A stretch of 32,000 bases of DNA from Gammaproteobacteria bacterium. GTDB taxonomy: Bacteria > Pseudomonadota > Gammaproteobacteria > Thiohalomonadales > Thiohalomonadaceae. The notes under the pieces are model-generated. The model had not been told where the DNA came from and did no database searches. It saw only the letters and a list, made by a program, of their open reading frames with translations. The DNA lies in contig JAWLGK010000017.1 in assembly GCA_041685115.1 (NCBI GenBank), forward strand, positions 27,712-59,711. Reading direction: 5' to 3'. Within the stretch, counting starts at the first letter, position 1. Each line of letters begins with the position of its first letter. The position numbers and the translations under genes are program-made. Below are positions 1,030 through 18,004 of the stretch, piece by piece.

Positions 1030-1048
1030 GGTACACGCTTGGGTACAC
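1030..1048. repeat. Left copy of 19-bp direct repeat GGTACACGCTTGGGTACAC (putative att core / island boundary)
   Basis: Identical 19/19 to 15046..15064, read directly from the sequence. The repeat is itself two GGTACAC half-sites. Confidence 0.8.
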
Positions 1049-3713: not shown

Positions 3714-3998
3714 TGGGCTTCAAAGCTTCGAAAATGGGGAATTAAGGGGTGTGCCCTGCGCCTGGAGCGAACGTCCAGGATTGCTCTCCGCAGTGGCAGC
3801 ATCCAAGAGGATGCCGGGTGCGGGTCACGGCTTCGCGCACTAAGCCGGGCACGGAACAAGCCGCCCACGGCCCGTACAGTTCCCGAAGGAACCACGTTCC
3901 CCAACCCCCTTCCGGCTGGGTCGCAGGGCACCCGGCCATTGTAGCGGGCGCGGTCGGGCATGGCACCGGGGCATTCACCCAGCCCATCCCGCCGGGGC

Positions 3999-4027
3999 TT
4001 GCCGAACTGTATCCCATTTTCTACAAT
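3999..4027 (+). promoter_or_regulatory. Sigma-70-like promoter of the toxin-antitoxin operon (-35 TTGCCG, 17-bp spacer, -10 TACAAT)
   Basis: TTGCCG at 3999..4004 and TACAAT at 4022..4027. The -10 ends 7 nt before the higB-like ATG at 4035, so the transcript could be leaderless or short-leader. Confidence 0.55.
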
Positions 4028-4034
4028 CACACCC

Positions 4035-4325
4035 ATGAAGACCATCCTCACCACCGACCTGTTCAACGAGTGGTTCGCCGGGCTGCGCGATAAGCAGGGG
4101 GCTCGCCGGATTCAGGCCCGCATCGACCGGGCCGAGGATGGCAACTTCGGCGACTGCGAGCCGGTGGGCGAAGGCGTGTCGGAGATGCGGATTCACTGCG
4201 GGCCGGGCTACCGCGTGTACTTCACGCAGCGCGGCATGGAGATCGTGATCCTGCTGGCGGGCGGCGACAAGTCCACCCAGCCCAAGGACATCAAGACCGC
4301 GCTGGAGCTGGCGCGGCAATTGTAA
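4035..4325 (+). CDS. higB: type II toxin, RelE/ParE-superfamily 'addiction module killer' (HigB-like)
   Basis: Protein: MKTILTTDLFNEWFAGLRDKQGARRIQARIDRAEDGNFGDCEPVGEGVSEMRIHCGPGYRVYFTQRGMEIVILLAGGDKSTQPKDIKTA. This is the typical killer-protein pattern, with a toxin-first gene order and the cognate antidote 12 nt downstream. Confidence 0.85.
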   Translation: MKTILTTDLFNEWFAGLRDKQGARRIQARIDRAEDGNFGDCEPVGEGVSEMRIHCGPGYRVYFTQRGMEIVILLAGGDKSTQPKDIKTALELARQL

Positions 4326-4337
4326 CGAGAGGTCACC

Positions 4338-4637
4338 ATGGGAACCATCAAGCTGCACAAGTGGGATAGCGCCGAACACCTCAAGACCGAGGAAGACATG
4401 GCGCAGTACCTGGAAGCCTGCATGGAGGAAGCCGGCGACGACGCGGCCTTCATCGCCAAGGCGCTCGGGAACATCGCCCGCGCCAAGGGCATGAGCCAGC
4501 TCGCCAAGGACACGGGCCTGGGACGCGAAAGCCTCTACAAGGCGCTATCCGGAGAGAACAACCCGAGCTTCGCCACCATCCTGAAGGTCGTGCACGCGCT
4601 GGGGCTGAAACTCCACCCTGAAGTCGCCCATCGCTGA
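4338..4637 (+). CDS. higA: type II antitoxin, addiction module antidote protein (HigA-family HTH)
   Basis: Motifs seen: HKWDSAEHLKTEEDMAQYLEACMEE, IAKALGNIARAKGMSQLAKDTGLGRESLYKALSGENNPSFATILKVVHALGLKL. This is the characteristic antidote-family sequence. Confidence 0.85.
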   Translation: MGTIKLHKWDSAEHLKTEEDMAQYLEACMEEAGDDAAFIAKALGNIARAKGMSQLAKDTGLGRESLYKALSGENNPSFATILKVVHALGLKLHPEVAHR

Positions 4638-4741: not shown

Positions 4742-5290
4742 CTACTCGGCGCCCGGTGCGTCGATGCCCAGGCGCTCACGGCGGCCCACAAGGAAGGCGT
4801 CCCGCTTGGCGGCCTCAGCCAATACCCGGTTGTAGAGGTCATCCAGCACCTCCTTGGGCGGGAACACGTTCAGGCTGATTTCCTCTTTGACCTCCACCCT
4901 GTCCCGCCATAGGTGCGGCTGGCGGTTGCGCAGCCATAGGCTCTGCGCCTGCACGCTGGGCGGCACCTGGCGCCGGAGCGGCCGGACAACAGCCCCCGAC
5001 CCTTCTCCCTCGGCAACTGGCCGTTCCTCCGTGACGAAGTGCCCGCCCACGGCGCTCCTGTAGAGGCTGTCCGCCACGTCGGAATCCGCCGCCATCTTCC
5101 CCGCCGAGATGGACGCGCAAAAATCGGCGTGAGCGCGCTTCCAACGGTTGATGGTCGCCTCGTCCACCCCGAAGAAGTCAGCCAAGCCCGCATCCGTCAG
5201 CCCCAACAGGCAGAGCTTCCGGGCCTGTTCGGCGAACTCCTCACGGTACTTGGTCGGGCGGCCTCGCCTACCCCTGGTCGTCGTGCTCAT
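4742..5290 (-). CDS. terminase small subunit-like DNA-binding protein (paralogue 1)
   Basis: Good SD (AAGGGGG). The N-terminus GRPTKYREEFAEQARKLCLLGLTDAGLADFFGVDEATINRWKRAHADF and the C-terminal LWLRNRQPHLWRDRVEV match the pattern I associate with phage TerS proteins (GRP.KY...HTH...W...hpeF...NR.P..WRD). The assignment is from memory and was not searched. Confidence 0.6.
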   Translation of the reverse strand: MSTTTRGRRGRPTKYREEFAEQARKLCLLGLTDAGLADFFGVDEATINRWKRAHADFCASISAGKMAADSDVADSLYRSAVGGHFVTEERPVAEGEGSGAVVRPLRRQVPPSVQAQSLWLRNRQPHLWRDRVEVKEEISLNVFPPKEVLDDLYNRVLAEAAKRDAFLVGRRERLGIDAPGAE

Positions 5291-5858
5291 CGGTCAGCCC
5301 CCTTTCTCGCATCACGGCCTGCTGCCGCTCGCGCGCCTGCTGCATGCGATCCTCGAACAGGCGCAGCAGCGCTTCACCATCCGGGCCGCTCACGGTCACA
5401 TCGGCCTGGTGCTCAATCCGGTCGCGCCACTTCTCGGGCTGCCGGTTCTTCAACCAGATGAACGCCGCCCCGGTGTCCGGCGGGTAATGCTTGGTGAGCG
5501 GGGTCAGCGTTACCAAGCCCTGATAGTTGGAGACGTGGACATCCGGGTGGGAGTAGCCGATGGCGCGCTGGTAGAGGGCAGCGGCCACCTTTGCGTCGGC
5601 ATCCGACTTGCCCTCTTTTATGGACTGCAAAAATTCGGGATGCGCCCCTTTCCAGCCGTGAAAGGTGCGCTCGGACACGCCGAAGAAGGCCGCCATCTCG
5701 GCATCGGTTTGCCCCAGCAGCGCCAGCCGGCGGGCCTGTTCGGCATAGTCGGCGCGGTAGAGCGTCGGACGGCCGCGCGCCGGCTTCTCCTTCGCCTTGC
5801 TGGTGCTCTTGCGGGCCTGCTGCGGCTGGCGCTTGGGCTTACTGGATGGCGTGGTCAT
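5268..5858 (-). CDS. terminase small subunit-like DNA-binding protein (paralogue 2)
   Basis: GRPTLYRADYAEQARRLALLGQTDAEMAAFFGVSERTFHGWKGAHPEF ... IWLKNRQPEKWRDRIEH is clearly paralogous to 4742..5290. The ATG at 5858 (MTTPSSKPK...) is chosen because upstream codons overlap ORF 5839..6045. The start is uncertain. Confidence 0.6.
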   Translation of the reverse strand: MTTPSSKPKRQPQQARKSTSKAKEKPARGRPTLYRADYAEQARRLALLGQTDAEMAAFFGVSERTFHGWKGAHPEFLQSIKEGKSDADAKVAAALYQRAIGYSHPDVHVSNYQGLVTLTPLTKHYPPDTGAAFIWLKNRQPEKWRDRIEHQADVTVSGPDGEALLRLFEDRMQQARERQQAVMRERGLTDEHDDQG

Positions 5859-6045
5859 TTTCGGGGATGGGCCTCTGCTCGACGGGCAGGTGGTGAAAGG
5901 ACGCGGCCAGCTCACCCAGGACAATCTCAGCCGCCTTCCGAAGGTCTGGCGAGATGTGCGGGGCGATGATGATGCCGCCCTGCTCGTGCAGGCGGGCAAA
6001 GAGCATCAGCGCCCACAGGATGCGATCTTCTTTCGTTTCGGGCAT
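5839..6045 (-). CDS. hypothetical protein (68 aa)
   Basis: Strong SD (AAGGAGCGGAG) before ATG 6045. The ORF is tightly packed within the minus-strand operon. Confidence 0.5.
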   Translation of the reverse strand: MPETKEDRILWALMLFARLHEQGGIIIAPHISPDLRKAAEIVLGELAASFHHLPVEQRPIPENDHAIQ

Positions 6046-6065: not shown

Positions 6066-6353
6066 TTACCGCTCAATGGTCGTGGGCACGGTCTCGTGCT
6101 TCGAGCGCACGCACCCCGCGCCGCAGGATGTGGTGTATCTGCCCAGCGTCTCGCCTTGGCAGTTCGTGAAGTAGTGGTAGCGCCCGGCGTCTCTGAACCG
6201 GAACACCGTGCAGCCGGCGTGCGTGAATAGCGTCGCCACCTCGAACTCAGGATTTCCGGTTTCGGTCATCTGTTCTGGGTCCTTCGCGCAGCCGACCACC
6301 AAAAGGCTACAGGCGAAGGCCAAGAGCAATGCGATCTTGGTCGGCTTCGTCAT
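6066..6353 (-). CDS. small lipoprotein (95 aa)
   Basis: The N-terminus MTKPTKIALLLAFACSLLVVGC has a signal peptide with an LVVGC lipobox. SD is GAGGT. The mature part is Cys-rich. Confidence 0.7.
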   Translation of the reverse strand: MTKPTKIALLLAFACSLLVVGCAKDPEQMTETGNPEFEVATLFTHAGCTVFRFRDAGRYHYFTNCQGETLGRYTTSCGAGCVRSKHETVPTTIER

Positions 6354-6360
6354 GGTTACC

Positions 6361-6585
6361 TCAGGCCCTTGGCGTGCTGAGCGGCACCGTCAACCGCCGG
6401 CGGGCTTCCTTTGCCCGCTGTTCCCTTTCCGCACTGATTGCCCGCGCGATGCCAACCAAGCAACGATTCCCGGTCTCCTCGGCGATCTCACGGCAGAGAT
6501 TGAGCCGGTCGCCGTGCTGTTCGGCCAACACCTCGTCAGAGGTCAGCGGCGCCCGGATGCGATTCGGTAGCAGCATCGCCTTCAT
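6361..6585 (-). CDS. hypothetical protein (74 aa)
   Basis: ATGA start/stop overlap with the upstream gene at 6582..6585. Confidence 0.45.
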   Translation of the reverse strand: MKAMLLPNRIRAPLTSDEVLAEQHGDRLNLCREIAEETGNRCLVGIARAISAEREQRAKEARRRLTVPLSTPRA

Positions 6586-7370
6586 GCCCGGAATCCCGGA
6601 TAGCGCAAGCTGCGCTTGCTACCTGATCGCTCCCAGTCGTCGCGATCAATGGCCGTAAGTGAACACAGTGTCATCGGAATCAGTAGCTCGACGAAGTGGC
6701 CGTCCTTGTCCACAGGCGAACTCAACGGCATGCCGATGGACTCGATCACCAGCGGCGAGTAGGTGCGCCCTTTGTATTTCATGGCGAGCCTCGCCGGCGC
6801 GTTGGGCGGGAGCGCTGCATATGCCATCGCCTCGTCCAACGGCTTTCCTTGCGCGAACTGCTTGATGCCTTCGAGGACCGCCATGATCGGGCCATCGTCC
6901 GCCAGACGCTCCGGCAGCGTCCACTTGACGAGCTGTTCAACCGGAGCTTCAACCTCTTTCGCTGGATCGCGCCACGCCCGGAAGAGCGCCACCACCTGAA
7001 TCTTCAGCGGCGGCATACCAGCGAAGACTTGGGTGGAGTTCAGCTTCGTAACGCCAGTGCGCCCCTCGAACTTGCCCATGAATTTCGAGAGCGAGCCACC
7101 CGGATCGGTGAATGCCTGTATCGCACCACTCGATAACATGGCCCTCATGGTTGGTGCCATGTTGCCGCTGTCCTCGAAAGGCGAGGACCACCCTAACTGC
7201 ATGTCCAAACTGCACTCGGTTAACGCAGCCTGAACCGTGGGAATGGGCCGCTCCTGACTGTCCTTCTCGATGCGCTTCCAGTACCTGGACGACCCTACGC
7301 GCTCCACCGGCCAAAAAGTGGCGATCAGGTGTGGCGAGAGCCCGTCCCAAAGCGAGGTCAACTCAGCCAT
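6582..7370 (-). CDS. hypothetical protein (262 aa), function unknown
   Basis: Uninterrupted ORF in the operon that overlaps the upstream gene by 8 nt. No motif was recognised. Confidence 0.6.
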   Translation of the reverse strand: MAELTSLWDGLSPHLIATFWPVERVGSSRYWKRIEKDSQERPIPTVQAALTECSLDMQLGWSSPFEDSGNMAPTMRAMLSSGAIQAFTDPGGSLSKFMGKFEGRTGVTKLNSTQVFAGMPPLKIQVVALFRAWRDPAKEVEAPVEQLVKWTLPERLADDGPIMAVLEGIKQFAQGKPLDEAMAYAALPPNAPARLAMKYKGRTYSPLVIESIGMPLSSPVDKDGHFVELLIPMTLCSLTAIDRDDWERSGSKRSLRYPGFRA

Positions 7371-9074: not shown

Positions 9075-9884
9075 TCACGCGGTCGCCCCTTCGGTCATGG
9101 CTTGCGCGCCCTCGGCAACGTCGGCGCCGCTGGCAATGTCGGGAAAGCGCCGGAGCGCCAGGGCCGCAGACTCGGCGGCTTCCTTGGCGCGCTCAACGGT
9201 GCTTACGAGCTTCGCGCCGGCCTTCATGTCCTCGAACTCCGGATTCAGTTCGGCGAAGCGCTCCAAGGCTGCGTGAGCCTCACGCTGGGCCGCTGAGACC
9301 GTGGCTACGGTCTGACCAAGGCACTCCATGCGGTCGTGCATCCGGCGCAGCCAGTCCATCTGCTCCAGCCGCGCCTGATCGAACTCGCGGAACATCCACG
9401 CGGAAACCTGCCGCTCCATGGTCATGCGGGCGCCCACCTCCCAGTCGTCCATGGCGCCGAAGAGGTAGTCGATGGAGACCTCGTAAACCTCGGCGGCCCG
9501 ACGAATTACCCACAACGGCAGCGACTCGCGATCCGCAGGTGCTTCGAACGCAGCGAGCTTGGCCTTCGTGATGCCAATTCGCGCGGCGGCCTCCCACTGC
9601 TTCAGTCCGGTCAACTCTCGGGCCTCAGTGAGGCGTTGCCCAACGATCTTCACGACCGTCGCCGCCCTCAGATGCCGACCGCCAGGGGGCGCTTCCACCC
9701 CTTCGCCCATCTGTTCGCCGTCCTCGGGCCGCTGAGGCGCTTCCTCCGGTACCGGGGTTGGTTGGTGCTCCAACATGCTCGTTCTCGCCTCCTGTACGGT
9801 GTGCGCTGGTCTGGTGTTGGCGATCATCGCGGCGCGAACGGCCGCCGCTGTCGGCTTTTTCTGAAAGGGGAAAAAGTCGCTCAC
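9075..9884 (-). CDS. XRE-family HTH regulator with extended N- and C-terminal regions
   Basis: The central IVGQRLTEARELTGLKQWEAAARIGITKAKLAAFE is a Cro/CI-type HTH. The GTG start overlaps the primase-helicase stop (GTGA at 9881..9884). The true start could be internal. Confidence 0.65.
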   Translation of the reverse strand: MSDFFPFQKKPTAAAVRAAMIANTRPAHTVQEARTSMLEHQPTPVPEEAPQRPEDGEQMGEGVEAPPGGRHLRAATVVKIVGQRLTEARELTGLKQWEAAARIGITKAKLAAFEAPADRESLPLWVIRRAAEVYEVSIDYLFGAMDDWEVGARMTMERQVSAWMFREFDQARLEQMDWLRRMHDRMECLGQTVATVSAAQREAHAALERFAELNPEFEDMKAGAKLVSTVERAKEAAESAALALRRFPDIASGADVAEGAQAMTEGATA

Positions 9885-11758: not shown

Positions 11759-12501
11759 ACCGCCCCCACGAGCCAGTCGGGTCTCTCCGCTGGGGCTGGC
11801 GTGCCCCTCCGGCTTTCGAGGTACTTTCGAACCCACGGGATCGGTTCGCTGACATCCTCGCGTTCGGCGCGCTCGATAGCCTGGACCACGGCGGCGTCGC
11901 CGTGATTCTTCCGCATCAGGCCCAGAAAGCTACGTGCCCCCTTCGCCGCGCAGCCCTTCGCCGTCAGGAAGGCGAGGCAATCGCCAAAGATTGGATCTGG
12001 CGCCGGCGCGGTCGCTGTTGCTGGCGTTGCCGAATCCGAATTGCCCGGCGGCGCGGCGGCGCCAGCCGAAGGCGGAACCTCCGAAGGAGGGTTAAGGGAA
12101 TCAGGAATCAGTAAGAGGGAATCAGCCGGGCCGGTTCTGTGCTCGCCCTGGTCCTGTACCGTGCAAGCACTGTGCTCGCCCGGTGCCGGTATCGTGCTTC
12201 CCGATTCCCGGCAGTGCGGGTTCTGGTGCTTGGTGAAGTTCAGCACCTGGATGAACCGCTCATTTCCAACGTGGTAACGCAGGATGAAGCCGGCGTCGTG
12301 AAGCTCGCCCAGCATGTCGTCCACGCTGCCGTCGTCGTAGGGCAAGATTTCGGCGCGGATGCGCTTCGGACGGTCTTCGAGGCGGCCTTCGCGGTCGGCA
12401 AGGCACCAGAGGCCGGCGAACAGCAGCCGGGCCAGAGGCGAGCACTCCGCCAAGGTCTCGTTCTTGAAGAAGCCGGGCTTGATGTTGCGGGCACGGGCCA
12501 C
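11755..12501 (-). CDS. replication-associated protein (phage replisome-organiser-like N-terminal domain)
   Basis: GTG start with SD ACGGGGG. The N-terminus ARNIKPGFFKNETLAECSPLARLLFAGLWCLADREGRLEDRP is a motif I recall from prophage replication modules. The gene sits immediately upstream of, and is coupled to, the primase-helicase. The middle of the protein is a low-complexity Pro/Ala linker. Confidence 0.55.
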   Translation of the reverse strand: MARARNIKPGFFKNETLAECSPLARLLFAGLWCLADREGRLEDRPKRIRAEILPYDDGSVDDMLGELHDAGFILRYHVGNERFIQVLNFTKHQNPHCRESGSTIPAPGEHSACTVQDQGEHRTGPADSLLLIPDSLNPPSEVPPSAGAAAPPGNSDSATPATATAPAPDPIFGDCLAFLTAKGCAAKGARSFLGLMRKNHGDAAVVQAIERAEREDVSEPIPWVRKYLESRRGTPAPAERPDWLVGAV

Positions 12502-12503
12502 GG

Positions 12504-12674
12504 TCAGGCCCCCGTCAGGTGAGCGATCAGGTGGTCGCGGACCTGCCGGACTTCAGCGACCTTGGCCGCGCGGGTGCGCCGGGTGGCGACCATACGCGCG
12601 TGGTGGAACGCTGCGCGCAGGTGGGCAGATCGGGCCAGGGCGGCGGCCAAGTGATGGCTGTAGGTATTCCGCAT
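12504..12674 (-). CDS. possible small basic protein (56 aa; below ORF-track cutoff)
   Basis: Own translation: MRNTYSHHLAAALARSAHLRAAFHHARMVATRRTRAAKVAEVRQVRDHLIAHLTGA. SD is GAGGG. It exactly fills the gap between alpA copy 2 and the replication gene. Confidence 0.4.
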   Translation of the reverse strand: MRNTYSHHLAAALARSAHLRAAFHHARMVATRRTRAAKVAEVRQVRDHLIAHLTGA

Positions 12675-12685
12675 GCCGTGCGCCC

Positions 12686-12940
12686 TCAGTTGGCGGCGCC
12701 GTGGTTCTGCTCACGGCTCGCGATCCAGGTGCGGATGTCCTCGACCTTCCAGGCGGTGACTTTTTCAGAAAGCTTGATGGGCGCAGGGAAATCACCGCGC
12801 TTCACCATCCGCCATAAGGTCGGCGCGCTGAACGGGAAGATTCCTGTGGTGGCCGGGCGTCGCTTGCGGGCTGGCTTACTGACCAGTTGTGTTTCGCGGA
12901 GATAGCCGGTTTCGGGGATCGTTACGGGCCGCGATGTCAT
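12686..12940 (-). CDS. alpA: AlpA-family transcriptional regulator or excisionase (copy 2)
   Basis: FPFSAPTLWRMVKRGDFPAPIKLSEKVTAWKVEDIRTWI is the canonical AlpA HTH pattern. It is the first gene of the long minus-strand operon. Confidence 0.85.
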   Translation of the reverse strand: MTSRPVTIPETGYLRETQLVSKPARKRRPATTGIFPFSAPTLWRMVKRGDFPAPIKLSEKVTAWKVEDIRTWIASREQNHGAAN

Positions 12941-12944
12941 GAGA

Positions 12945-12971
12945 GGTCACCTGTAGTGTCGTGAGGTGACC
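12945..12971 (-). promoter_or_regulatory. 8-bp inverted repeat GGTCACCT / AGGTGACC covering the alpA copy-2 Shine-Dalgarno
   Basis: On the minus strand the sequence reads GGTCACCT-cacgacactac-AGGTGACC-tctc-ATG. The proximal arm contains the AGGTGA SD. It could be an operator or an SD-sequestering hairpin. Confidence 0.4.
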
Positions 12972-12997
12972 CGTATTAAATTGACGCGAGGTGAAAC

Positions 12998-13037
12998 AAA
13001 AAAGGCGTGTCCGCCGGAGACTGACCAGCCTCCGGCG
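12998..13037 (-). terminator. intrinsic terminator after the 189-aa cargo gene
   Basis: On the minus strand, CGCCGGAG-(10-nt loop)-CTCCGGCG forms an 8-bp stem. A short GGCG/CGCC hairpin and TTTTTT (12998..13003) follow. Confidence 0.6.
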
Positions 13038-13065
13038 TACAGTGTGCAGTCTCCGGCGGAGACTG

Positions 13066-13635
13066 TTACTTGCCGCCTGCCAGCTCTTTGGCTCGCTCAC
13101 GGATTGAGTCGTATGCCCACCGGTAACTCCGGGTTGCTCCATCTATGCGCTGTTCATCAAGCCAAATGAGAAGTTTTTTTGCTGCTTCAGGATGGCTCGC
13201 GAACTCGCCGCGCCTGCGCTCCCATTCCGCCAGGAAGACATCCTTCACTGCCCTATTTCTGTCGTGCCTTTGTTCATTCGCGTTATCAGAAGCCTTCTTC
13301 CTTCTGTCTTTCTCAATCTCGCCGAGAATGCTGCCTGTGCATGCAGATTCCTCGACCTTCGCGAGCTGTACCATTGAGTGAAGGACTTCCGGGCGAATGG
13401 AAATCTGAGACACCAGACTGGTCAGATCTCTATTGCGAAGCAACACGGTACGCCGACAGGAGTAATACAGCGCCACGGCAAGAAGCTCAGTGAAGCGGTA
13501 GCCGGTCAAGGCTTTCCATTCGTCAACCCAGGAATCAATGTTATCTCGCGATAACTCCAGTTCTCTCTGAACCTCCTCAGGTGCAAAGAGCAAGAGTTTC
13601 GCCACGTCTTCAATAGTCGGATCTCGAACCCACAT
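13066..13635 (-). CDS. orphan cargo protein (189 aa), unknown function
   Basis: ATG 13635 (MWVRDPTIEDVAKLL...) has SD AGGGGG. The upstream part of track ORF 13066..13875 overlaps the integrase 3' end and reads as junk. The gene is visibly more AT-rich than its neighbours and has its own terminator. No family was recognised. Confidence 0.6.
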   Translation of the reverse strand: MWVRDPTIEDVAKLLLFAPEEVQRELELSRDNIDSWVDEWKALTGYRFTELLAVALYYSCRRTVLLRNRDLTSLVSQISIRPEVLHSMVQLAKVEESACTGSILGEIEKDRRKKASDNANEQRHDRNRAVKDVFLAEWERRRGEFASHPEAAKKLLIWLDEQRIDGATRSYRWAYDSIRERAKELAGGK

Positions 13636-13732
13636 AGCGCCCCCTATCAGCGCACCCTTGAAGAGGAAGCCGCGCCGGCCGGGGAAGGGTGCCCCGGTTG
13701 TCTCCCCGTCGGGATAGGCGCGGCTGTACTCG

Positions 13733-14995
13733 TTACGATGCGGCCCGCGTCTCCTTGCGCAGCGGCACCACGTTCCAATCCTTCCCCTCCTCGCACGCCA
13801 CGATGAAGGTGGCCAGTTTCGCCAGGGCTTCCTTGCGCTCTTCGAAATAGATGTGCCGGTCGTAGATGCCCTCAACGCCCTTGATTTTGTGGTTCAGGCA
13901 TCGCTCGGCGATGTGCGGATCAGTTCCTAGTGCCGCGAGGTGAGTCCGGGCGGTTCGTCGGAGATCGTGGACGGTGAAAGAGGGAAGCCCATGCTTGACC
14001 TTCGCCAGGGCCACAGAGAGGGTCGATTCGCAGACGTGGGGAAGCATCCGGTTCTGCATCTTGCGGGCCGGCAATACCCAAGCGCTGTTGCCGGCGAAGC
14101 GTTTCAATTCTTTCAGCCATCCCACTGCCTGGGGCGGTAGCGGGATATCGATGGCAGTGTTGGTCTTTGTCCGCTCGGCCGGCAGATACCAGACAGCATT
14201 GTCCAGGTCGAACTCCGCCCATGGCGCGGCCATAAACTCCATCTTGCGCACCGCCAGCACCAACAGCAGCTTGACCGTCAGGCCGTTCTCGACGCTGAAG
14301 CCCTTGGCGTTACGCATGGCCTCGAACAGCGTAACCAGCTCGTCGCGGGACAAGGCGCGGTCGCGGGCCTCCTCCTTGCCGCCGGCGTCGTTCAGGTCGA
14401 AGGCAGCGGCAGGGTTGAATTCGATCATGTGCCGCTTCACGGCGTAGTCGAACATCCGCCGCACCCATCGCAGCACGTCGTTGGCGATGGTCGGGGCGCC
14501 GCGCTTGACGATGGTCTGGAGCATCGCATCGACGTGCAGCGGCTTCACGTCCTCGATGTTCAGCTTGCCGATGTTCGGCTTGATGTCCTTCTCGATACGG
14601 CTGCGCACGATGTTGGGATGCTTCCAGCGGCCCAGGATCATGCGCTCGAAATACTCATCCGCCAGTTGCCCGACCGTCACGGCGTGCTTCTCGGCCTCGA
14701 TCTTGGCCAGGGCCTCGGCCTTGCGCTCCTGCTTCTCGCCGGCCACGTCGTGCCCCAAGGCCACGCGGGCGGAAAGCTCTTTCGCCTGCTTGCGGGCATC
14801 AGCAAGGGACAGCTCGCGATAGCTGCCCAGGCTCATCACCCGCGCCTTGCCTCCGAAGCGGTAGCGAAAGCGCCACGTCGGAACCGCGTCATTCCCGCGG
14901 AACCGCAGGTACAGCCCATCGCCGTCGCCGCGTCCCTCGAACCGCTCGCCGGCCTTGATCCAGTTGCGGATCTGCACGTCCGTCAGTTTGCCCAT
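13733..14995 (-). CDS. int: tyrosine recombinase, P4-type (DUF4102 N-terminus) integrase
   Basis: ATG 14995: MGKLTDVQIRNWIKAGERFEGRGDGDGLYLRFRGNDAVPTWRFRYRFGGK is the typical P4-family N-terminus. The C-terminus carries HDLRRTARTHLAALG...LNH...GIYDRH, which supplies the catalytic R, H-x-x-R and Y. The 34 codons upstream in the track run through the att repeats. Confidence 0.9.
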   Translation of the reverse strand: MGKLTDVQIRNWIKAGERFEGRGDGDGLYLRFRGNDAVPTWRFRYRFGGKARVMSLGSYRELSLADARKQAKELSARVALGHDVAGEKQERKAEALAKIEAEKHAVTVGQLADEYFERMILGRWKHPNIVRSRIEKDIKPNIGKLNIEDVKPLHVDAMLQTIVKRGAPTIANDVLRWVRRMFDYAVKRHMIEFNPAAAFDLNDAGGKEEARDRALSRDELVTLFEAMRNAKGFSVENGLTVKLLLVLAVRKMEFMAAPWAEFDLDNAVWYLPAERTKTNTAIDIPLPPQAVGWLKELKRFAGNSAWVLPARKMQNRMLPHVCESTLSVALAKVKHGLPSFTVHDLRRTARTHLAALGTDPHIAERCLNHKIKGVEGIYDRHIYFEERKEALAKLATFIVACEEGKDWNVVPLRKETRAAS

Positions 14996-15011
14996 GTCAC
15001 CGCCTCGCCAT

Positions 15012-15034
15012 GTGTACCCATTCCCGTGTACCCA
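15012..15034. repeat. two GTGTACCCA direct repeats (15012..15020, 15026..15034), inverted relative to the GGTACAC half-sites of the att repeat
   Basis: Read directly. With 15046..15064 they form a cluster of four related 7-9-mers, two in each orientation, just upstream of int. These are likely recombinase-binding sites. Confidence 0.55.
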
Positions 15035-15045
15035 ATCCCTCATCA

Positions 15046-15064
15046 GGTACACGCTTGGGTACAC
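15046..15064. repeat. Right copy of 19-bp direct repeat GGTACACGCTTGGGTACAC (putative att core)
   Basis: Identical 19/19 to 1030..1048. It lies 51 bp upstream of the integrase start. Confidence 0.8.
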
Positions 15065-15108
15065 GCCCATTCTGAGATTTGGTGAGCCAACATGCAACGA
15101 CAGGAAAC

Positions 15109-15134
15109 AAAAAAGCCCGACAGCATCAAGGCTT
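15109..15134 (-). terminator. weak candidate intrinsic terminator downstream of yicC
   Basis: On the minus strand, AAGCC-(12-nt loop)-GGCTT runs into TTTTTTG. The stem is only 5 bp, so this is a low-confidence call. Confidence 0.3.
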
Positions 15135-15172
15135 ACCTGGCTTCCTGAGATAACGTGAGACTAGGTGAATCG

Positions 15173-16027
15173 TTATTCGATGTTTTGCACCTGTTCGCGC
15201 ATCTGTTCAATGAGAACCTTGAGCTCCACGGCCACGCGGGTGGTCTCCGCATCGGCCGACTTGGAACCCAGGGTGTTGGCCTCGCGGTTGAGTTCCTGCA
15301 TGAGGAAATCCAGCCGCCGGCCCACCGGCTGCATCTGCTCCAGCACACGGCGCACTTCGGCGATGTGGGTCTCCAGGCGATCCAGCTCCTCGGCCACGTC
15401 GATGCGCGTGGCGAACACGACCATCTCCTGTTCGAGCCGCTGCCCATCCAGTTCGGCCTTCACCTCGGCCAAGCGCTCCACGAGACGCTCGCGGAAACGC
15501 GCCTGCACCTCGGGGAGGCGCGCCCGCACCGTGGGCAACTGGGCGGTCATGGCGTCACAGCGCTGGCGGATGAGCTCGGCCAGCTTGGCACCCTCGCGGG
15601 CGCGGGCCTCGTTGAGTTCGCCGAGGGAGCGATCGAGCAGGGCGAGGGCGTCGGCGTGCAGACGCTCCAGATCGGGCGCCGGGGCCTGCAACACGCCGGG
15701 CCAGCGCAGGATGTCCATGGAGTTCACCGGCGCAGCGTCATAGACCAGGCCGTCGACCTCACGACTGAGCTGCGCCAGGGTGGCGGCCAGGGCGTGGTTG
15801 AGGGCGAGTTGGCCGGCGGACGCGGGCGCCGGCGTGAAACGCAGGGCGCAGTCCACCTTGCCGCGTGAAAGCGCCGCACCGATGCGCTCCCGCAGCGCAC
15901 CTTCGAGCACGCGCAGGTCGTCCGGCAGCCGCATGGAGACTTCCAGATATCGGTGATTCACCGAGCGCAGTTCGAGGGCCAGGACCCCATAGTCGCCGTG
16001 GGTCTCCTGCCGGGCAAAAGCGGTCAT
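15173..16027 (-). CDS. yicC: YicC-family stress-induced protein
   Basis: RSMTAFARQETHGDYGVLALELRSVNHRYLEVSMRLPDDLR aligns with E. coli YicC (MIRSMTAYARRE...MRSVNQRYLE). The C-terminal NREANTLGSKS motif is present. ATG 16027 is preferred; the alternative is 16069. Confidence 0.9.
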   Translation of the reverse strand: MTAFARQETHGDYGVLALELRSVNHRYLEVSMRLPDDLRVLEGALRERIGAALSRGKVDCALRFTPAPASAGQLALNHALAATLAQLSREVDGLVYDAAPVNSMDILRWPGVLQAPAPDLERLHADALALLDRSLGELNEARAREGAKLAELIRQRCDAMTAQLPTVRARLPEVQARFRERLVERLAEVKAELDGQRLEQEMVVFATRIDVAEELDRLETHIAEVRRVLEQMQPVGRRLDFLMQELNREANTLGSKSADAETTRVAVELKVLIEQMREQVQNIE

Positions 16028-16151
16028 ACTTCTCAATTTCGAGCTCTCCTGCGCGGAAAAGAGCGCCATGGTAACCGAAAACCGTCCCCCCGGGAGAAGG
16101 CCATCCGGCCCTGTGGTAGGCTACCGCGGTGGACCGGCGAACGGTCATGGC

Positions 16152-17120
16152 ATGGGCACAATGACGCAAGAAACCAAGGCGCGCGGCCTGCGCCCCGGCG
16201 CGCGTATCGATCGATACACCCTCGAACGCCAGATCGGCGGTGGCGGCTTCAGCATCGTCTATCTGGCGAACGACCCCGAGACCCGCACCCAGGTGATCGT
16301 GAAGGAGTACATGCCGCGCAAACTGGCCGTGCGCGGTGATGACGGCCGCACGGTGATCACCGTGGGCGAGGACGAAAAGTCGGTGGAACGCTTCGCCCAG
16401 GGCAAGAAGATGTTCTTCCAGGAAGCGGCCACCCTCGCCACCCTCAAGCACCCCAACATCGTCAACGTGACCAACTTCTTCCGCGCCAACGGCACGGTTT
16501 ACATGGTCATGGAGTACGCCCAGGGCATCAACCTTCAGGAATACATACGGCGTCACAACGGCAGTCTCAGCGAGAAGCTGATCCGCATCGTGTTCACGGC
16601 CCTGCTCGACGGCCTCAAGTGCATCCACTCACGTGGCCTGCTGCACCTGGACATCAAGCCCGGCAACATCTATCTGCGTAGCGGCGGCAGTCCGCTGTTG
16701 CTCGACTTCGGCGCCGTACACGAAATGATGCAGAGCCGCCAGGACCAGGCTTCACAGGTCATCACACCCGGCTTTTCTCCCATCGAACAGCTCACCCCCG
16801 GTGGTTACGTGGGGCCGTGGAGCGACATCTACGCCCTCGGCGCCACCATGCGCGCCTGCATCGAAGGCGTGGCGCCGCCGCCCTCACCCGAGCGCACCCC
16901 CGAGGACCACATGAAGCCGGCCACCGTGGCCTTCCGTCGCCGTTACTCCGCGGCGCTGTTGCGGGTCATCGACTGGGCCATGGAGGTGGACCCGTTGGCG
17001 CGCCCGCAGAACGTGGACCAATTGCTGGCCGCCCTCGCGGACGCGGAATCCGATGACCCGCCCGCGCCTGAATCCATGCTCGAACGCCTGGCCAACAGCT
17101 TCAACTGGGGCAGGAGCTGA
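16152..17120 (+). CDS. serine/threonine protein kinase (Hanks-type)
   Basis: Motifs seen: Gly-rich loop IGGGGFSIVY, VIVKEY (catalytic Lys), HLDIKPGNI, LLDFG, PGFSPIEQ. The start is ATG 16152 or 16161. Confidence 0.9.
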   Translation: MGTMTQETKARGLRPGARIDRYTLERQIGGGGFSIVYLANDPETRTQVIVKEYMPRKLAVRGDDGRTVITVGEDEKSVERFAQGKKMFFQEAATLATLKHPNIVNVTNFFRANGTVYMVMEYAQGINLQEYIRRHNGSLSEKLIRIVFTALLDGLKCIHSRGLLHLDIKPGNIYLRSGGSPLLLDFGAVHEMMQSRQDQASQVITPGFSPIEQLTPGGYVGPWSDIYALGATMRACIEGVAPPPSPERTPEDHMKPATVAFRRRYSAALLRVIDWAMEVDPLARPQNVDQLLAALADAESDDPPAPESMLERLANSFNWGRS

Positions 17121-17122
17121 TC

Positions 17123-18004
17123 ATGCAGTACGAAATCGGACAGGCCAACCGCCTCGGCACCCGCGCCTCCAACCAGGACCGTTTTGCGGCCCTGGACAGG
17201 GACGAGGCCACCGTACTGCTGGTGCTGGCCGACGGCATGGGCGGACACGCCGGCGGCGAGATGGCCGCGCAGATCCTGGTCGACACCGCCGCCGCGGCCC
17301 TGCACGCGGCCACCTTGCCCATCAGCGATACGACGGAATTCCTGGCCGGCGTGATCAGTCGCGCCCACCAGGCCATCCACGCCTATGCCAGTGAAAACGG
17401 CTTAGCGGCCTCGCCGGGCACCACCGGCGTGCTGTGCCTCATCCAGGACGGCACCGCGCAATGGGCCCACGTTGGCGACAGTCGGCTCTATCTGTTCCGC
17501 GACCAGTTGCCGCTGTACCGCACCCGCGACCATTCCTACGTGGAAAAGCTCTATCGTCGCGGTGAGATCCGTCGCAGCGACCAGTCCTTCCACCCCATGC
17601 GCAACCAGATCACCCAGTGCATCGGCTGCCTCCAGGACCTTCCCGAAGTGGAATTCGGCAAGCCGACCACCTTGGCGCCGGGCGACGTGCTGCTGCTGTG
17701 CTCCGACGGCCTGTGGGGCGCCCTCGAAGACATGCAGATCGGCGCCGGCGTAACCGCACCCGACCTGGATGCGGCGGTCAACCAGCTGGCCGAACAGGCG
17801 GAGCGCAACAGTTATCCGCATAGCGACAACATCAGCGTGCTCGCCCTGCGCTTCGTCTCGCGCACTCACTCACGGGCAGCGGCGAGCAACGAGGCACAGA
17901 ACACAGCAAAAGCGCCCCCGCGTGCACCGCGCGCGAAACTGGAGGACGCCATCGAGCAGATCGAAGAGGTCCTCAGGAAATACGAAAACGAGATGAACCG
18001 CTGA
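17123..18004 (+). CDS. PP2C-family Ser/Thr protein phosphatase
   Basis: Motifs seen: [44 protein letters not shown]. The start lies 2 nt after the kinase stop, with a GGAG SD. Confidence 0.9.

Follow-up and report, generated by a model that had tools for sequence, protein, structure and literature searches.

The gene analysed here, ORF189, lies between an integrase gene and an AlpA-family gene, and its closest precedent is the iolg/icg gene of the PICMIs of Vibrionaceae (Barcia-Cruz et al. 2024, PMC10803314), to which we liken it by position and architecture. In both cases, a single co-oriented gene stands between int and alpA within an int-alpA-primase backbone. The PICMI genes belong to 13 unrelated families in 35 subfamilies and are absent in 3 of these 35; deletion of iolg, known from PICMI115 only, abolishes excision and transfer, complementation having used int and iolg together (PMC10803314). 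PICMIs are, however, about 6 kb long and adjoin fis, whereas the present island is about 14 kb long, adjoins yicC and carries TerS-like genes. Moreover, iolg usually overlaps int by 1-13 nt, whereas here a 70-nt structured RNA intervenes.

A similar position is held in Gram-negative PICIs by the 5' accessory region, which comes after int and before alpA in an int-alpA-pri satellite and is variable in content. It has been described as an int-proximal immune hotspot (Fillol-Salom et al. 2022, as cited in PMC11364771). As far as that citing account describes them, such hotspots hold recognisable immune systems in variable gene number, whereas here we find one gene with an RNA leader and no known defence system among 54 occupants. 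The position of EcCIMP1_002, the slot gene of an E. coli PICI, also matches; this gene gave no phenotype in its sole test, UV rescue of a uvrB mutant (PMC11773190). No master repressor is known in Gram-negative PICIs, and the helper signal that switches on alpA is unidentified (PMC6092414). P4-like satellites, for their part, have a hotspot between int and psu-delta-sid that is likewise integrase-proximal and exchanges cassettes via conserved flanks (Rousset et al. 2022, PMC9122126; PMC13586616). Unlike the slot studied here, it lies on the other side of int from the regulatory genes, is often multi-gene and rich in known systems, and has no link to an AlpA/Vis gene or to a leader RNA.

A parallel can also be drawn with Stl/Rpr of Gram-positive PICIs (SaPIs), which resemble the slot gene in being int-adjacent and highly divergent between related islands, and which share with the role proposed below the logic of a variable sensor domain joined to a DNA-binding part controlling induction. 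Stl contains a demonstrable HTH, represses an operon that is transcribed divergently from its own gene and binds known phage proteins. The slot gene, which we call X when any occupant is meant, differs from Stl in being co-directional with alpA, although repeats lie between the two.

The island and ORF189

The window, i.e. the whole stretch of 32,000 nucleotides that was analysed, contains an island of about 14.0 kb between 19-bp direct repeats, located between yicC and gmk in a 65% GC host. The parts needed here are the following.

1030..1048, no strand: second copy of the 19-bp direct repeat, gmk-side island end
12686..12940, minus strand: alpA (AlpA-family HTH; Phage_AlpA E=1.1e-5, above the Pfam cut-off), directly downstream of ORF189
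13066..13635, minus strand: ORF189, ATG start, 189 aa, occupant of the variable int-alpA slot
13733..14995, minus strand: P4-type tyrosine integrase (Arm-DNA-bind_3, Phage_int_M, Phage_integrase)
15046..15064, no strand: 19-bp direct repeat GGTACACGCTTGGGTACAC (att), yicC-side island end

Besides int and alpA, the island carries a replication-initiator-like gene (PHROG E=3e-57), a primase-helicase gene with Toprim and AAA_25/DnaB_C domains, two TerS-like and one PmgG-like packaging genes, and several ORFs without a match. As in PICIs, the integrase is terminal, direct repeats bound an element in the range of about 10-15 kb, and alpA is followed by rep/pri, co-oriented with int. Judging from this gene content, we treat the island as a putative PICI-like phage satellite beside yicC. 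A mobilisable element of the PIME type was also considered and set aside, since TerS-like and PmgG-like genes are present and neither tra nor trb was found.

ORF189 has the integrase on one side and the AlpA-family gene on the other. Its GC content is 52.6% (GC3 0.57) against 61.6-67.2% (GC3 0.74-0.84) for int, alpA, rep and primase, and a 500-nt GC profile dips to 0.552 at 13001-13500. A Shine-Dalgarno sequence, AGGGGG, is found at -10..-5. The position between integrase and alpA, the AT-richer composition and the good Shine-Dalgarno had all been pointed out by a sequence-only reading of this DNA and hold true, as does its statement that the protein has no recognised domain: Pfam, PHROGs, PADLOC and NCBIfam gave no match, and weak matches to JAB and Sigma70_r3, under the cut-offs, were discarded.

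The same reading had called ORF189 an orphan, which is right for close relatives and wrong for remote ones. A word-indexed search of 5.8 billion clusters yielded no close relative, nor did phage and plasmid records contain a tblastn match. A scan of viral contigs for the family found nothing, and none of the loci reached via the integrase, 79 in genomes and 17 viral, carries the gene. A word-indexed search with the family profile returned just two known members. On the other hand, ORF189 has 23 remote homologues of matching length, with 26-42% identity and a best E-value of 1.5e-17. Its AlphaFold2 model (pLDDT 89.9) predicts an all-alpha protein, in which an acidic N-terminal helical domain (residues 1-80, pI 4.8) would be followed by a 66-residue helix (residues 82-147) and by a basic two-helix tail (residues 148-189, pI 9.3). 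The model of the homologue P0001, with a pLDDT of 93.8, ends in a basic three-helix unit instead. The homologues and the quality of the ORF189 model establish that ORF189 is a real gene and not a chance ORF. One would otherwise wonder whether it is a chance or pseudogenised frame kept merely as a spacer between int and alpA, in line with its atypical composition, its lack of close homologues and the absence of X from one related island (L036). The intact frame of 189 codons, the length-matched homologues, the two high-scoring models and the conserved translation-initiation leader make such decay hardly credible.

Unfortunately, a DNA-binding domain is not demonstrable in this family. Neither the family nor its C-terminal tail has a credible match in Pfam, among PDB sequences (where both the family profile and the C-tail profile found nothing) or with Foldseek, for which two high-confidence family models were compared with BFVD and PDB and every match had E>1. 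The fold search on ORF189 thus yielded no significant relative; the matches to Stl, Pf4r and homeodomains were low-ranked and insignificant (E of about 6-8 for the Stl chains) and were not retained. The best hint of DNA binding is a weak HTH_23/HTH_28 match in one member only. With a hhalign probability of 0.1% between the ORF189 N-domain and the AlpA profile, the protein does not qualify as an HTH_17/AlpA-type winged helix (about 60-90 aa) either.

Exchange of the slot between related islands

The slot was surveyed in the 52 loci with both int and alpA among the 79 genome loci found via the integrase, the other 27 being left out because alpA was not detected by tblastn. These 52 loci mostly hold one co-oriented ORF of 160-370 aa in the slot; several hold a shorter ORF only. 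Slot GC is under flank GC in every locus, by 7-17 points in most, so that low GC characterises the slot in all hosts and does not signal recent import here. The slot proteins form at least 15 BLAST-unrelated clusters. Even among island pairs with integrases at least 95% identical, 19 of 29 have BLAST-unrelated slot proteins, the alpA N-terminus being identical at a median of 100%. L051, L065 and L014, for example, are sister islands whose int is 98% identical and whose alpA N-terminus is the same. Homology between islands stops at the start codon of X and restarts 33-40 nt before alpA, and each X has a private 3' region of 55-125 nt. The int-alpA slot is exchanged as a cassette.

Comparison across homologous islands thus reveals variable occupants between conserved int and alpA. 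Conservation in all of them, which the sequence-only reading had named as evidence against its proposal of swapped defence cargo, is seen for the slot and not for the gene. The swapping itself therefore stands, whereas neither a peculiarity of this island nor ordinary defence cargo is supported, for the reasons given below.

The two E. coli relatives examined share the yicC-side insertion and have the order int, hypothetical gene, HTH gene. The arrangement also has variants: L036 is without X and has three tandem terminators between int and alpA, and in cluster C3 some related loci have the slot gene abutting int. Three resemblances were examined and rejected: E. coli K-12 yfjH lies between intA and alpA but on the opposite strand, CFT073 c1499 and c1500 turned out to be capsid-like, and an analogy with integron cassettes (a CDS with a 3' imperfect palindrome) lacks an IntI-type integrase and, on visual inspection, a GTTRRRY core at the boundaries.

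Within the ORF189 family, all 13 recovered contexts have an AlpA-like gene immediately downstream of the homologue. Its own upstream neighbour varies, being int, a small ORF, a Type IIG restriction-modification gene, or int with a Type ISP restriction-modification gene. In L105 and L106, restriction-modification genes adjoin family members and are placed between int and the homologue; L106 is a Mob_Pre mobilisable element with no evident phage helper. The slot proteins are also mosaic: what the L030 protein has in common with the ORF189 family is limited to a C-terminal module of 65 aa (hhalign 98.5%), and its first 40 aa recur in other slot clusters. Of 58 slot proteins, 36 combine an acidic body with a basic stretch over the last 60 aa; among control island proteins, 7 of 64 do. 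No universal domain was found across the slot families. A single C-terminal HTH tail common to all slot proteins was rejected, the iterative HMM recruiting only the GKY...STARKAL subgroup and L030 and not ORF189; tail-against-tail hhalign of the slot proteins was negative except for two pairs, and an AlpA-like N-terminal module in the largest slot cluster is too weak (hhalign 39%) to be claimed.

These data bear on the candidate role put forward by the sequence-only reading, namely that X is single-gene anti-phage or superinfection-exclusion cargo and the slot a hotspot of defence genes expressed under a conserved leader. Low GC and an extreme turnover of content within nearly identical flanks are typical of defence hotspots, PICIs have been reported with immune systems at their 5' end (PMC11364771), restriction-modification genes adjoin the family in L105 and L106, and new single-gene systems often have no database match. 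However, PADLOC gave no credible match for any of the 54 slot occupants and Pfam for just one, whereas in the P4 satellite pangenome the share of known defence genes is 34% (PMC13586616); were one third of the families recognisable, finding none among 15 would have a probability of about 0.002. The slot nearly always holds a single gene and never a multi-gene system, with fixed orientation and leader. The restriction-modification genes stand upstream of X and do not replace it, X staying with alpA. Finally, the occupants have modules and a charge architecture in common, which suggests one functional class. Given the single gene with its fixed RNA leader, the empty PADLOC search, the constant linkage to alpA, the location of the restriction-modification genes elsewhere and the role of the analogous PICMI gene in excision, we do not uphold the defence proposal, which seems to us somewhat unlikely though worth keeping in mind.

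RNA leader, repeats and alpA leader

The sequences on either side of ORF189 contain the following elements.

12945..12971, minus strand: alpA leader hairpin GGTCACCT-N11-AGGTGACC, with the alpA Shine-Dalgarno as its 3' arm, 4 nt before the ATG of alpA
12998..13003, minus strand: U6 run, 7 nt after the second stem, terminator-like but non-canonical
13015..13064, no strand: four copies of the 8-mer AGTCTCCG/CGGAGACT, three exact and one with a single mismatch, forming two palindromes
13049..13063: palindrome GTCTCCGGCGGAGAC, after the ORF189 stop
13637..13653, minus strand: mini-hairpin GCGCT-GATAGGG-GGCGC, whose loop and 3' arm present the Shine-Dalgarno and whose end is 1 nt before the ATG
13655..13724, minus strand: int-alpA RNA (Rfam RF02996), 66.9 bits against a gathering score of 35.8, a full-length three-way junction directly upstream of ORF189

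The 97-nt gap from the int stop to the ORF189 ATG is occupied by RF02996 and the Shine-Dalgarno hairpin. This copy of RF02996 had gone unnoticed in the sequence-only reading.

An RF02996 leader is present in 35 loci, where the slot start codon is always 12-18 nt past the end of our model R1, which ends at window position 13650, 5 nt beyond the Rfam match. Compensatory changes are seen in 16 of its 17 pairs, and 94.8% of the alignment cells are paired against 30-44% in slid controls, the alignment having been fitted to the model. In L030 and L032, extra DNA separates int from RF02996; together with the constant spacing before X in the 35 loci, these insertions tie the RNA to X and not to int. 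Rfam files RF02996 as an sRNA, and the window copy likewise lies between int and alpA, but here and in the 35 related loci the RNA abuts the start of a variable ORF. This points to a conserved cis-acting 5' leader of the slot gene, instead of or besides a trans-acting sRNA. A hairpin equivalent to that around the ORF189 Shine-Dalgarno is found in 31 of 34 distinct leaders, against 29% of shuffles, and its arms covary.

On the 3' side, the separate palindrome noticed earlier after the ORF189 stop is indeed there, as part of the repeat array. Exact copies of the 8-mer AGTCTCCG/CGGAGACT are confined to one 50-bp stretch within the 32 kb window, and these repeats are candidate operator sites and/or insulating hairpins. 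The clear intrinsic terminator announced at this place is confirmed only in part: the 3' RNA does form two strong hairpins (z = -3.45) and a U6 run follows, but this run is 7 nt off the stem, and a scan of 12400-15400 detected nothing terminator-like on the minus (coding) strand. Of 34 cassettes, 21 exceed 95% of shuffles in the inverted or direct repeats of their private 3' region, and only 2 have a canonical-looking terminator there. Repeats as striking as those of the ORF189 cassette are lacking beside the homologues in L001, L002 and L003. No promoter-like site was found in 12400-15400, so X appears to be co-transcribed with int. The alpA leader hairpin, at which homology between islands restarts, has covarying equivalents in enteric relatives.

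A possible control partner of AlpA

Our analysis establishes the slot architecture, the cassette swapping, the strict linkage of X to alpA in the ORF189 family and the lack of known defence domains among the occupants. ORF189 is more likely to serve the on/off control of the island than to be a typical anti-phage defence gene. We tentatively propose that X is a life-cycle control factor acting with AlpA, of the class of PICMI iolg/icg, probably binding DNA at the repeats of its cassette; this is a serious possibility, still short of an even chance. The unit would read int, RF02996 leader with its Shine-Dalgarno hairpin, X with its own 3' region, alpA leader hairpin, alpA. The basic C-terminal helices of X would bind cassette-specific repeats (here the four AGTCTCCG half-sites at 13015..13064), which would stand just upstream of the alpA promoter and leader, while the acidic, fast-evolving N-terminal domain could read a partner, a protein of the helper phage for example. 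X would thereby gate the expression of alpA and, through it, island excision and replication, and the RF02996 leader would set X translation.

Several observations weaken this proposal: no DNA-binding domain is demonstrable and no domain is universal to the slot, L001, L002 and L003 are without equally striking repeats, EcCIMP1_002 is without a phenotype in its one test, and the restriction-modification neighbours in L105 and L106 can be read as an association with defence. The repeats could also simply be insulating hairpins, as the three tandem terminators of L036, which has no X, would suggest. Moreover, since loss of iolg abolishes excision in PICMI115, a positive cofactor fits better than a repressor.

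Alternatively, one could assume that X is an architectural or adaptor protein that would work with Int and AlpA at the att sites, in a Xis/Vis-like manner, and would not regulate alpA. Supporting this idea, deletion of iolg in PICMI115 abolishes helper-induced excision and transfer, and an Int-IOLG-AlpA complex has been proposed (PMC10803314). X also lies between two recombination genes, its apparent co-transcription with int would fit, and a protein with the predicted basic tail and long helix could bend or bridge DNA. However, X proteins are unrelated even where the integrases are at least 95% identical and the alpA N-terminus is the same, so that a specific interface with Int or AlpA would have to be built anew at every exchange, and the X proteins have no detectable interaction domain in common. 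In addition, exact copies of AGTCTCCG occur only at 13015-13064 and not at the att ends, and X is dispensed with in L036 as in the three PICMI subfamilies mentioned above. Such an excision cofactor would be unlikely, in our view.

Another hypothesis is that X acts on the helper phage, as a derepressor of the helper prophage like P4 epsilon or Ash, or by interference, and diversifies with helper variants. Hypervariability without change of position would suit a protein that has to follow diverse phage targets, the body that varies is acidic, and functions of the Ash, Ant or Icd type are found elsewhere in such satellites (PMC13612085). On the other hand, ORF189 has no similarity to any PHROG, anti-repressor or known interference protein, and an action on the helper would leave unexplained both the strict linkage to alpA and the family member in the Mob_Pre element L106, where no phage helper is evident. 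We consider this improbable.

Returning to a control factor acting with AlpA, a bolder version of it, and a distinctly doubtful one, would be that RF02996, X, the repeats and alpA together form the helper-sensing switch of Gram-negative PICI-type satellites and mobilisable islands, the X families being Stl-like sensor-regulators. In each family, the acidic variable domain would then recognise a different helper-phage or helper-plasmid protein, and the basic tail an operator of its own ahead of alpA. By exchanging cassettes, islands would be redirected to new helpers, and translation of the sensor would be controlled by its leader, the int-alpA "sRNA".

Being integrase-proximal, AT-rich and variable is not by itself proof of defence. 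If X were nevertheless a defence gene, at least 15 single-gene systems, all entirely unknown, would be housed in this slot. The hypervariable gene with its covarying RNA leader and cassette-specific repeats before alpA is a candidate for what switches on alpA in Gram-negative PICIs, and we re-read the Rfam "int-alpA sRNA" as the 5' leader of the slot gene. One architectural rule links enteric PICIs, betaproteobacterial islands, a mobilisable element and the Vibrio PICMIs.

The gene between integrase and alpA

Four features of the window frame ORF189, the gene under study:

1030..1048 and 15046..15064, 19-bp direct repeat bracketing an island of about 14 kb between gmk and yicC
12686..12940, minus strand, AlpA-family gene of 84 aa, downstream of ORF189
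13066..13635, minus strand, ORF189, 189 codons with an ATG start
13733..14995, minus strand, P4-type tyrosine integrase (int), upstream of ORF189 in the direction of transcription

After alpA come a replication-initiator-like gene, a Toprim/DnaB-type primase-helicase gene and an HTH protein gene. In addition to int, alpA and its replication genes, the island encodes two TerS-like genes, a PmgG-like gene and a HigB/HigA-like pair, which gives it the gene content of a PICI-type phage satellite. The two adjacent terminase-small-subunit-like genes (phrog_309, E=1e-42 and 8e-53) and the PmgG-like head-morphogenesis gene (4742..5999 and 6582..7370, minus strand) probably form its packaging-redirection module. 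The HTH protein encoded after the primase (269 aa, 9075..9884, minus strand) matches PADLOC capH (E=6e-9) and RstR-type phage repressors of NCBIfam (E=1.5e-7), and it may be a further island regulator.

In E. coli, too, relatives of the integrase adjoin yicC; they are followed by a hypothetical gene, an HTH gene (alpA), Ant, Icd and a P4-family primase. As two such islands (L021 and L022, with integrases 69% identical to that of the window) lie directly beside yicC, the integration target appears to be conserved across very different hosts. Outside the window's island, beside yicC, a Ser/Thr-kinase-like ORF is followed by one that looks like a PP2C-type phosphatase (16068..18004, plus strand; judged from the translations). 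Enteric relatives (L004-L011, L003) carry isrK and the C4 antisense RNA with its a1/b1 targets 2-4 kb downstream of alpA, near Icd-like and Ant genes, a region resembling the P1 immI module; the RNA family scan found no isrK/C4 antisense RNA in the window.

The sequence-only reading, which proves largely right, had described ORF189 as an AT-richer gene with a good Shine-Dalgarno and no recognizable domain. Indeed, its GC content is 52.6% (0.59, 0.42 and 0.57 at the three codon positions) versus 61.6-67.2% in the flanking genes (third position 0.74-0.84), the 500-nt GC profile falls to 0.552 at 13001-13500, and the motif AGGGGG lies 4 nt 5' of the ATG. No credible match was obtained in Pfam, PHROGs, PADLOC or NCBIfam, nor any match in a word-indexed search of 5.8 billion clusters or by tblastn of phage and plasmid records. 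An exhaustive phmmer search of 1.84 billion representatives did recover 23 homologues of 150-239 aa (26-42% identity, best E=1.5e-17). ORF189 is thus a genuine protein-coding gene, and that it would be junk is hardly credible.

The AlphaFold2 model, built from the alignment with the homologues, is all-alpha (pLDDT 89.9), with a domain of six helices at the N-terminus, then a helix of 66 residues and finally two helices at the C-terminus; that of the homologue P0001 (pLDDT 93.8) ends in three short helices. Foldseek, a check suggested with the sequence-only reading, gave no significant match for either model in the PDB or BFVD, and the family profile had no match among PDB sequences. The charge of the protein is split between an acidic N-terminal domain (pI 4.8) and a basic tail (pI 9.3).

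A conserved slot with exchanged genes

Integrase scans recovered loci from Beta- and Gammaproteobacteria, 17 of them on viral contigs and 79 in genomes, with integrase identities mostly of 61-83%; a handful at 33-39% were excluded from the analysis of the int-alpA interval, hereafter the slot. This analysis covers the 52 loci where int and alpA were both located, leaving out 27 of the 79 genome loci, which have no tblastn-detectable alpA, and the slot ORFs were called mechanically. The int-alpA gap is usually 0.9-1.3 kb and holds, in most of the 52 loci, a single co-oriented ORF of 160-370 aa. In each of these loci the slot is poorer in GC than its flanks, by 7-17 points in most and independently of the host GC; over all slot loci the difference is mostly about 5-17 points. 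For example, slot genes have 32-45% GC in enterics of about 50%, 46% in a betaproteobacterium of 59%, and 52.6% here at 65%. Because the offset tracks host GC, low GC belongs to the slot itself and does not argue for recent import.

By BLAST, the occupants form at least 15 mutually unrelated clusters, none of which includes ORF189, and next to the closest integrase (83% identity) lies yet another unrelated ORF. Among pairs of integrases at least 95% identical, the slot proteins are unrelated in 19 of 29, with an alpA N-terminus that is 100% identical in the median. The comparison across islands thus bears out the variable slot that had been suspected. Homology between islands stops 5-10 nt inside the slot ORF and restarts 33-40 nt 5' of the alpA ATG, from which it follows that the exchanged unit is the slot CDS together with 55-80 nt of private 3' sequence. 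Some features recur: 36 of 58 slot proteins combine an acidic body with a basic stretch over their last 60 aa, a pattern seen in 7 of 64 island proteins from outside the slot (the sequences are non-independent, so that the Fisher test, p of 4e-9, overstates the significance), and the slot protein of locus L030 joins a C-terminal 65-aa module of the ORF189 family (hhalign 98.5%) to 40 N-terminal aa common to other clusters.

RNA leader and downstream repeats

The 97 nt between the int stop and the ORF189 ATG contain a match to int-alpA RNA, RF02996 (13655..13724, minus strand; 66.9 bits for a gathering score of 35.8), which Rfam files as an sRNA and which the sequence-only reading had missed. 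This family or our own covariance model was found in 35 loci, and in all 35 the slot ORF has its first start codon 12-18 nt past the model end, which is itself 5 nt beyond the Rfam match. Even where extra DNA or an ORF separates int from the RNA (L030, L032), the latter still abuts the slot ORF. Its three helices show covariation in 16 of 17 pairs, and 94.8% of cells are paired versus 30-44% in slid controls, in an alignment fitted to the model. The interval between RNA and ATG forms a 4-6-bp hairpin with covarying arms that presents the Shine-Dalgarno, in 31 of 34 distinct leaders versus 29% of shuffles. RF02996 therefore looks like a cis-acting 5' leader of the slot gene. The leader extends over 13637..13726 (minus strand) in the window and is recorded also for loci L004-L019 and L021-L103. 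The slot is thus a conserved, single-gene, recombinationally swapped site with a structured RNA leader.

A clear intrinsic terminator had been read after the ORF189 stop. Two strong hairpins are indeed present (z = -3.45), as is the palindrome quoted at 13049..13063, but this region is only terminator-like, because the U6 run begins 7 nt past the second stem and a terminator scan of the minus (coding) strand over 12400-15400 found no terminator-like site. More generally, only 2 of 34 private 3' regions fit a canonical terminator, and in 21 of the 34 distinct cassettes the repeats they hold, inverted or direct, exceed in length those of 95% of shuffles. The strongest example comes from the window, whose 32 kb contain exactly three copies of AGTCTCCG/CGGAGACT, always inside 13015..13064, and a fourth copy with one mismatch lies at 13027..13034, the four forming two palindromes that share one arm. 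A terminator does not require two separate hairpins with identical arms, whereas repeated protein-binding sites do look like this. Against this reading stands L036 (Zobellella maritima), which alone among the related islands lacks a slot gene: there int and alpA are separated by three canonical intrinsic terminators in tandem (6260-6520; GCCCGC...GCGGGTTTTTTT). This suggests a need to shield alpA from int transcription, and protection of alpA from read-through may therefore be what the 3' region was selected for.

Directly 5' of alpA, a conserved and covarying hairpin includes the alpA Shine-Dalgarno (12945..12971, minus strand, GGTCACCT-N11-AGGTGACC); those of enteric relatives read CCCGTAAC...AGGAGTTACGGG, CCCCTAAC...GTTAGGGG and similar, with covarying arms. 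This hairpin sequesters or presents the Shine-Dalgarno, and homology between islands restarts exactly there. In the islands of cluster C3, where the slot gene abuts int without RF02996, AT-rich spacers of 260-490 nt precede alpA (L009, L018, L034, L079-L083, L091, L098) and contain four or five iteron-like repeats of the TTTCAATAGA or TTAATGGAAT type.

Possible roles of the slot gene

Immune systems are stated to lie at the 5' or 3' end of PICIs (PMC11364771), and 34% of the P4 satellite pangenome consists of known defence genes (PMC13586616). ORF189 had been put forward as candidate defence or accessory cargo. The exchange stands, but ordinary defence cargo is improbable. PADLOC (2023 release) gave no credible match among 54 slot proteins and Pfam only one, a DUF, so that by sequence neither ORF189 nor any other occupant resembles a known defence protein. 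An AlpA-like gene lies immediately downstream of the ORF189 homologue in 13 of 13 recovered contexts while the upstream neighbour varies: the strict linkage of the family is with alpA and not with int. In two loci (L106/L107), a 1669-aa Type ISP restriction-modification enzyme is encoded between int and the homologue, within a mobilisable element that has a Mob_Pre relaxase (L106:939-6573), and upstream of the homologue in a third (L105), on the opposite strand, there is a Type IIG restriction-modification gene; defence cargo thus inserts upstream and the family gene stays with alpA. The leader fixed at the start codon, the lack of PADLOC matches, the linkage to alpA and the common modules and charge pattern make the slot unlike a defence hotspot. 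For the same gene to be a novel single-gene defence or exclusion protein is rather unlikely. As accessory or defence cargo, the HigB/HigA-like pair (3960..4637, plus strand) is a better candidate than ORF189; in it a toxin-like gene (3960..4325, phrog_3445) precedes an HTH repressor-like gene (4338..4637, phrog_4268), both on the strand opposite to the island operon.

A parallel can be drawn with the PICMI satellites of Vibrio, whose int-alpA gene, either iolg (overlapping int) or icg (contiguous), belongs to 13 unrelated families of unknown function (PMC10803314). ORF189 can be likened to them as the slot gene of a different satellite lineage, by position and description and not by sequence; the RNA leader and the private repeats of the slot gene are described here for the first time. 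Deletion of iolg in PICMI115 abolishes helper-induced excision and transfer, and complementation used int and iolg together (PMC10803314). It seems unlikely to us that ORF189 assists excision as a cofactor of Int and AlpA. In E. coli EcCIMP1, the function of the slot gene is unknown (PMC11773190). PICIs of Gram-negative bacteria have AlpA as activator and no known master repressor, and it has not been identified which helper signal switches on alpA (PMC6092414). A factor manipulating the helper is quite improbable for ORF189.

We tentatively propose that ORF189 is a life-cycle control partner of AlpA. The weakest link is DNA binding, because no HTH could be demonstrated in the family by sequence or fold. 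The basic tail would bind the cassette's own repeats and the acidic variable domain would read a partner, so that ORF189 would gate alpA and, through it, the excision and replication of the island.
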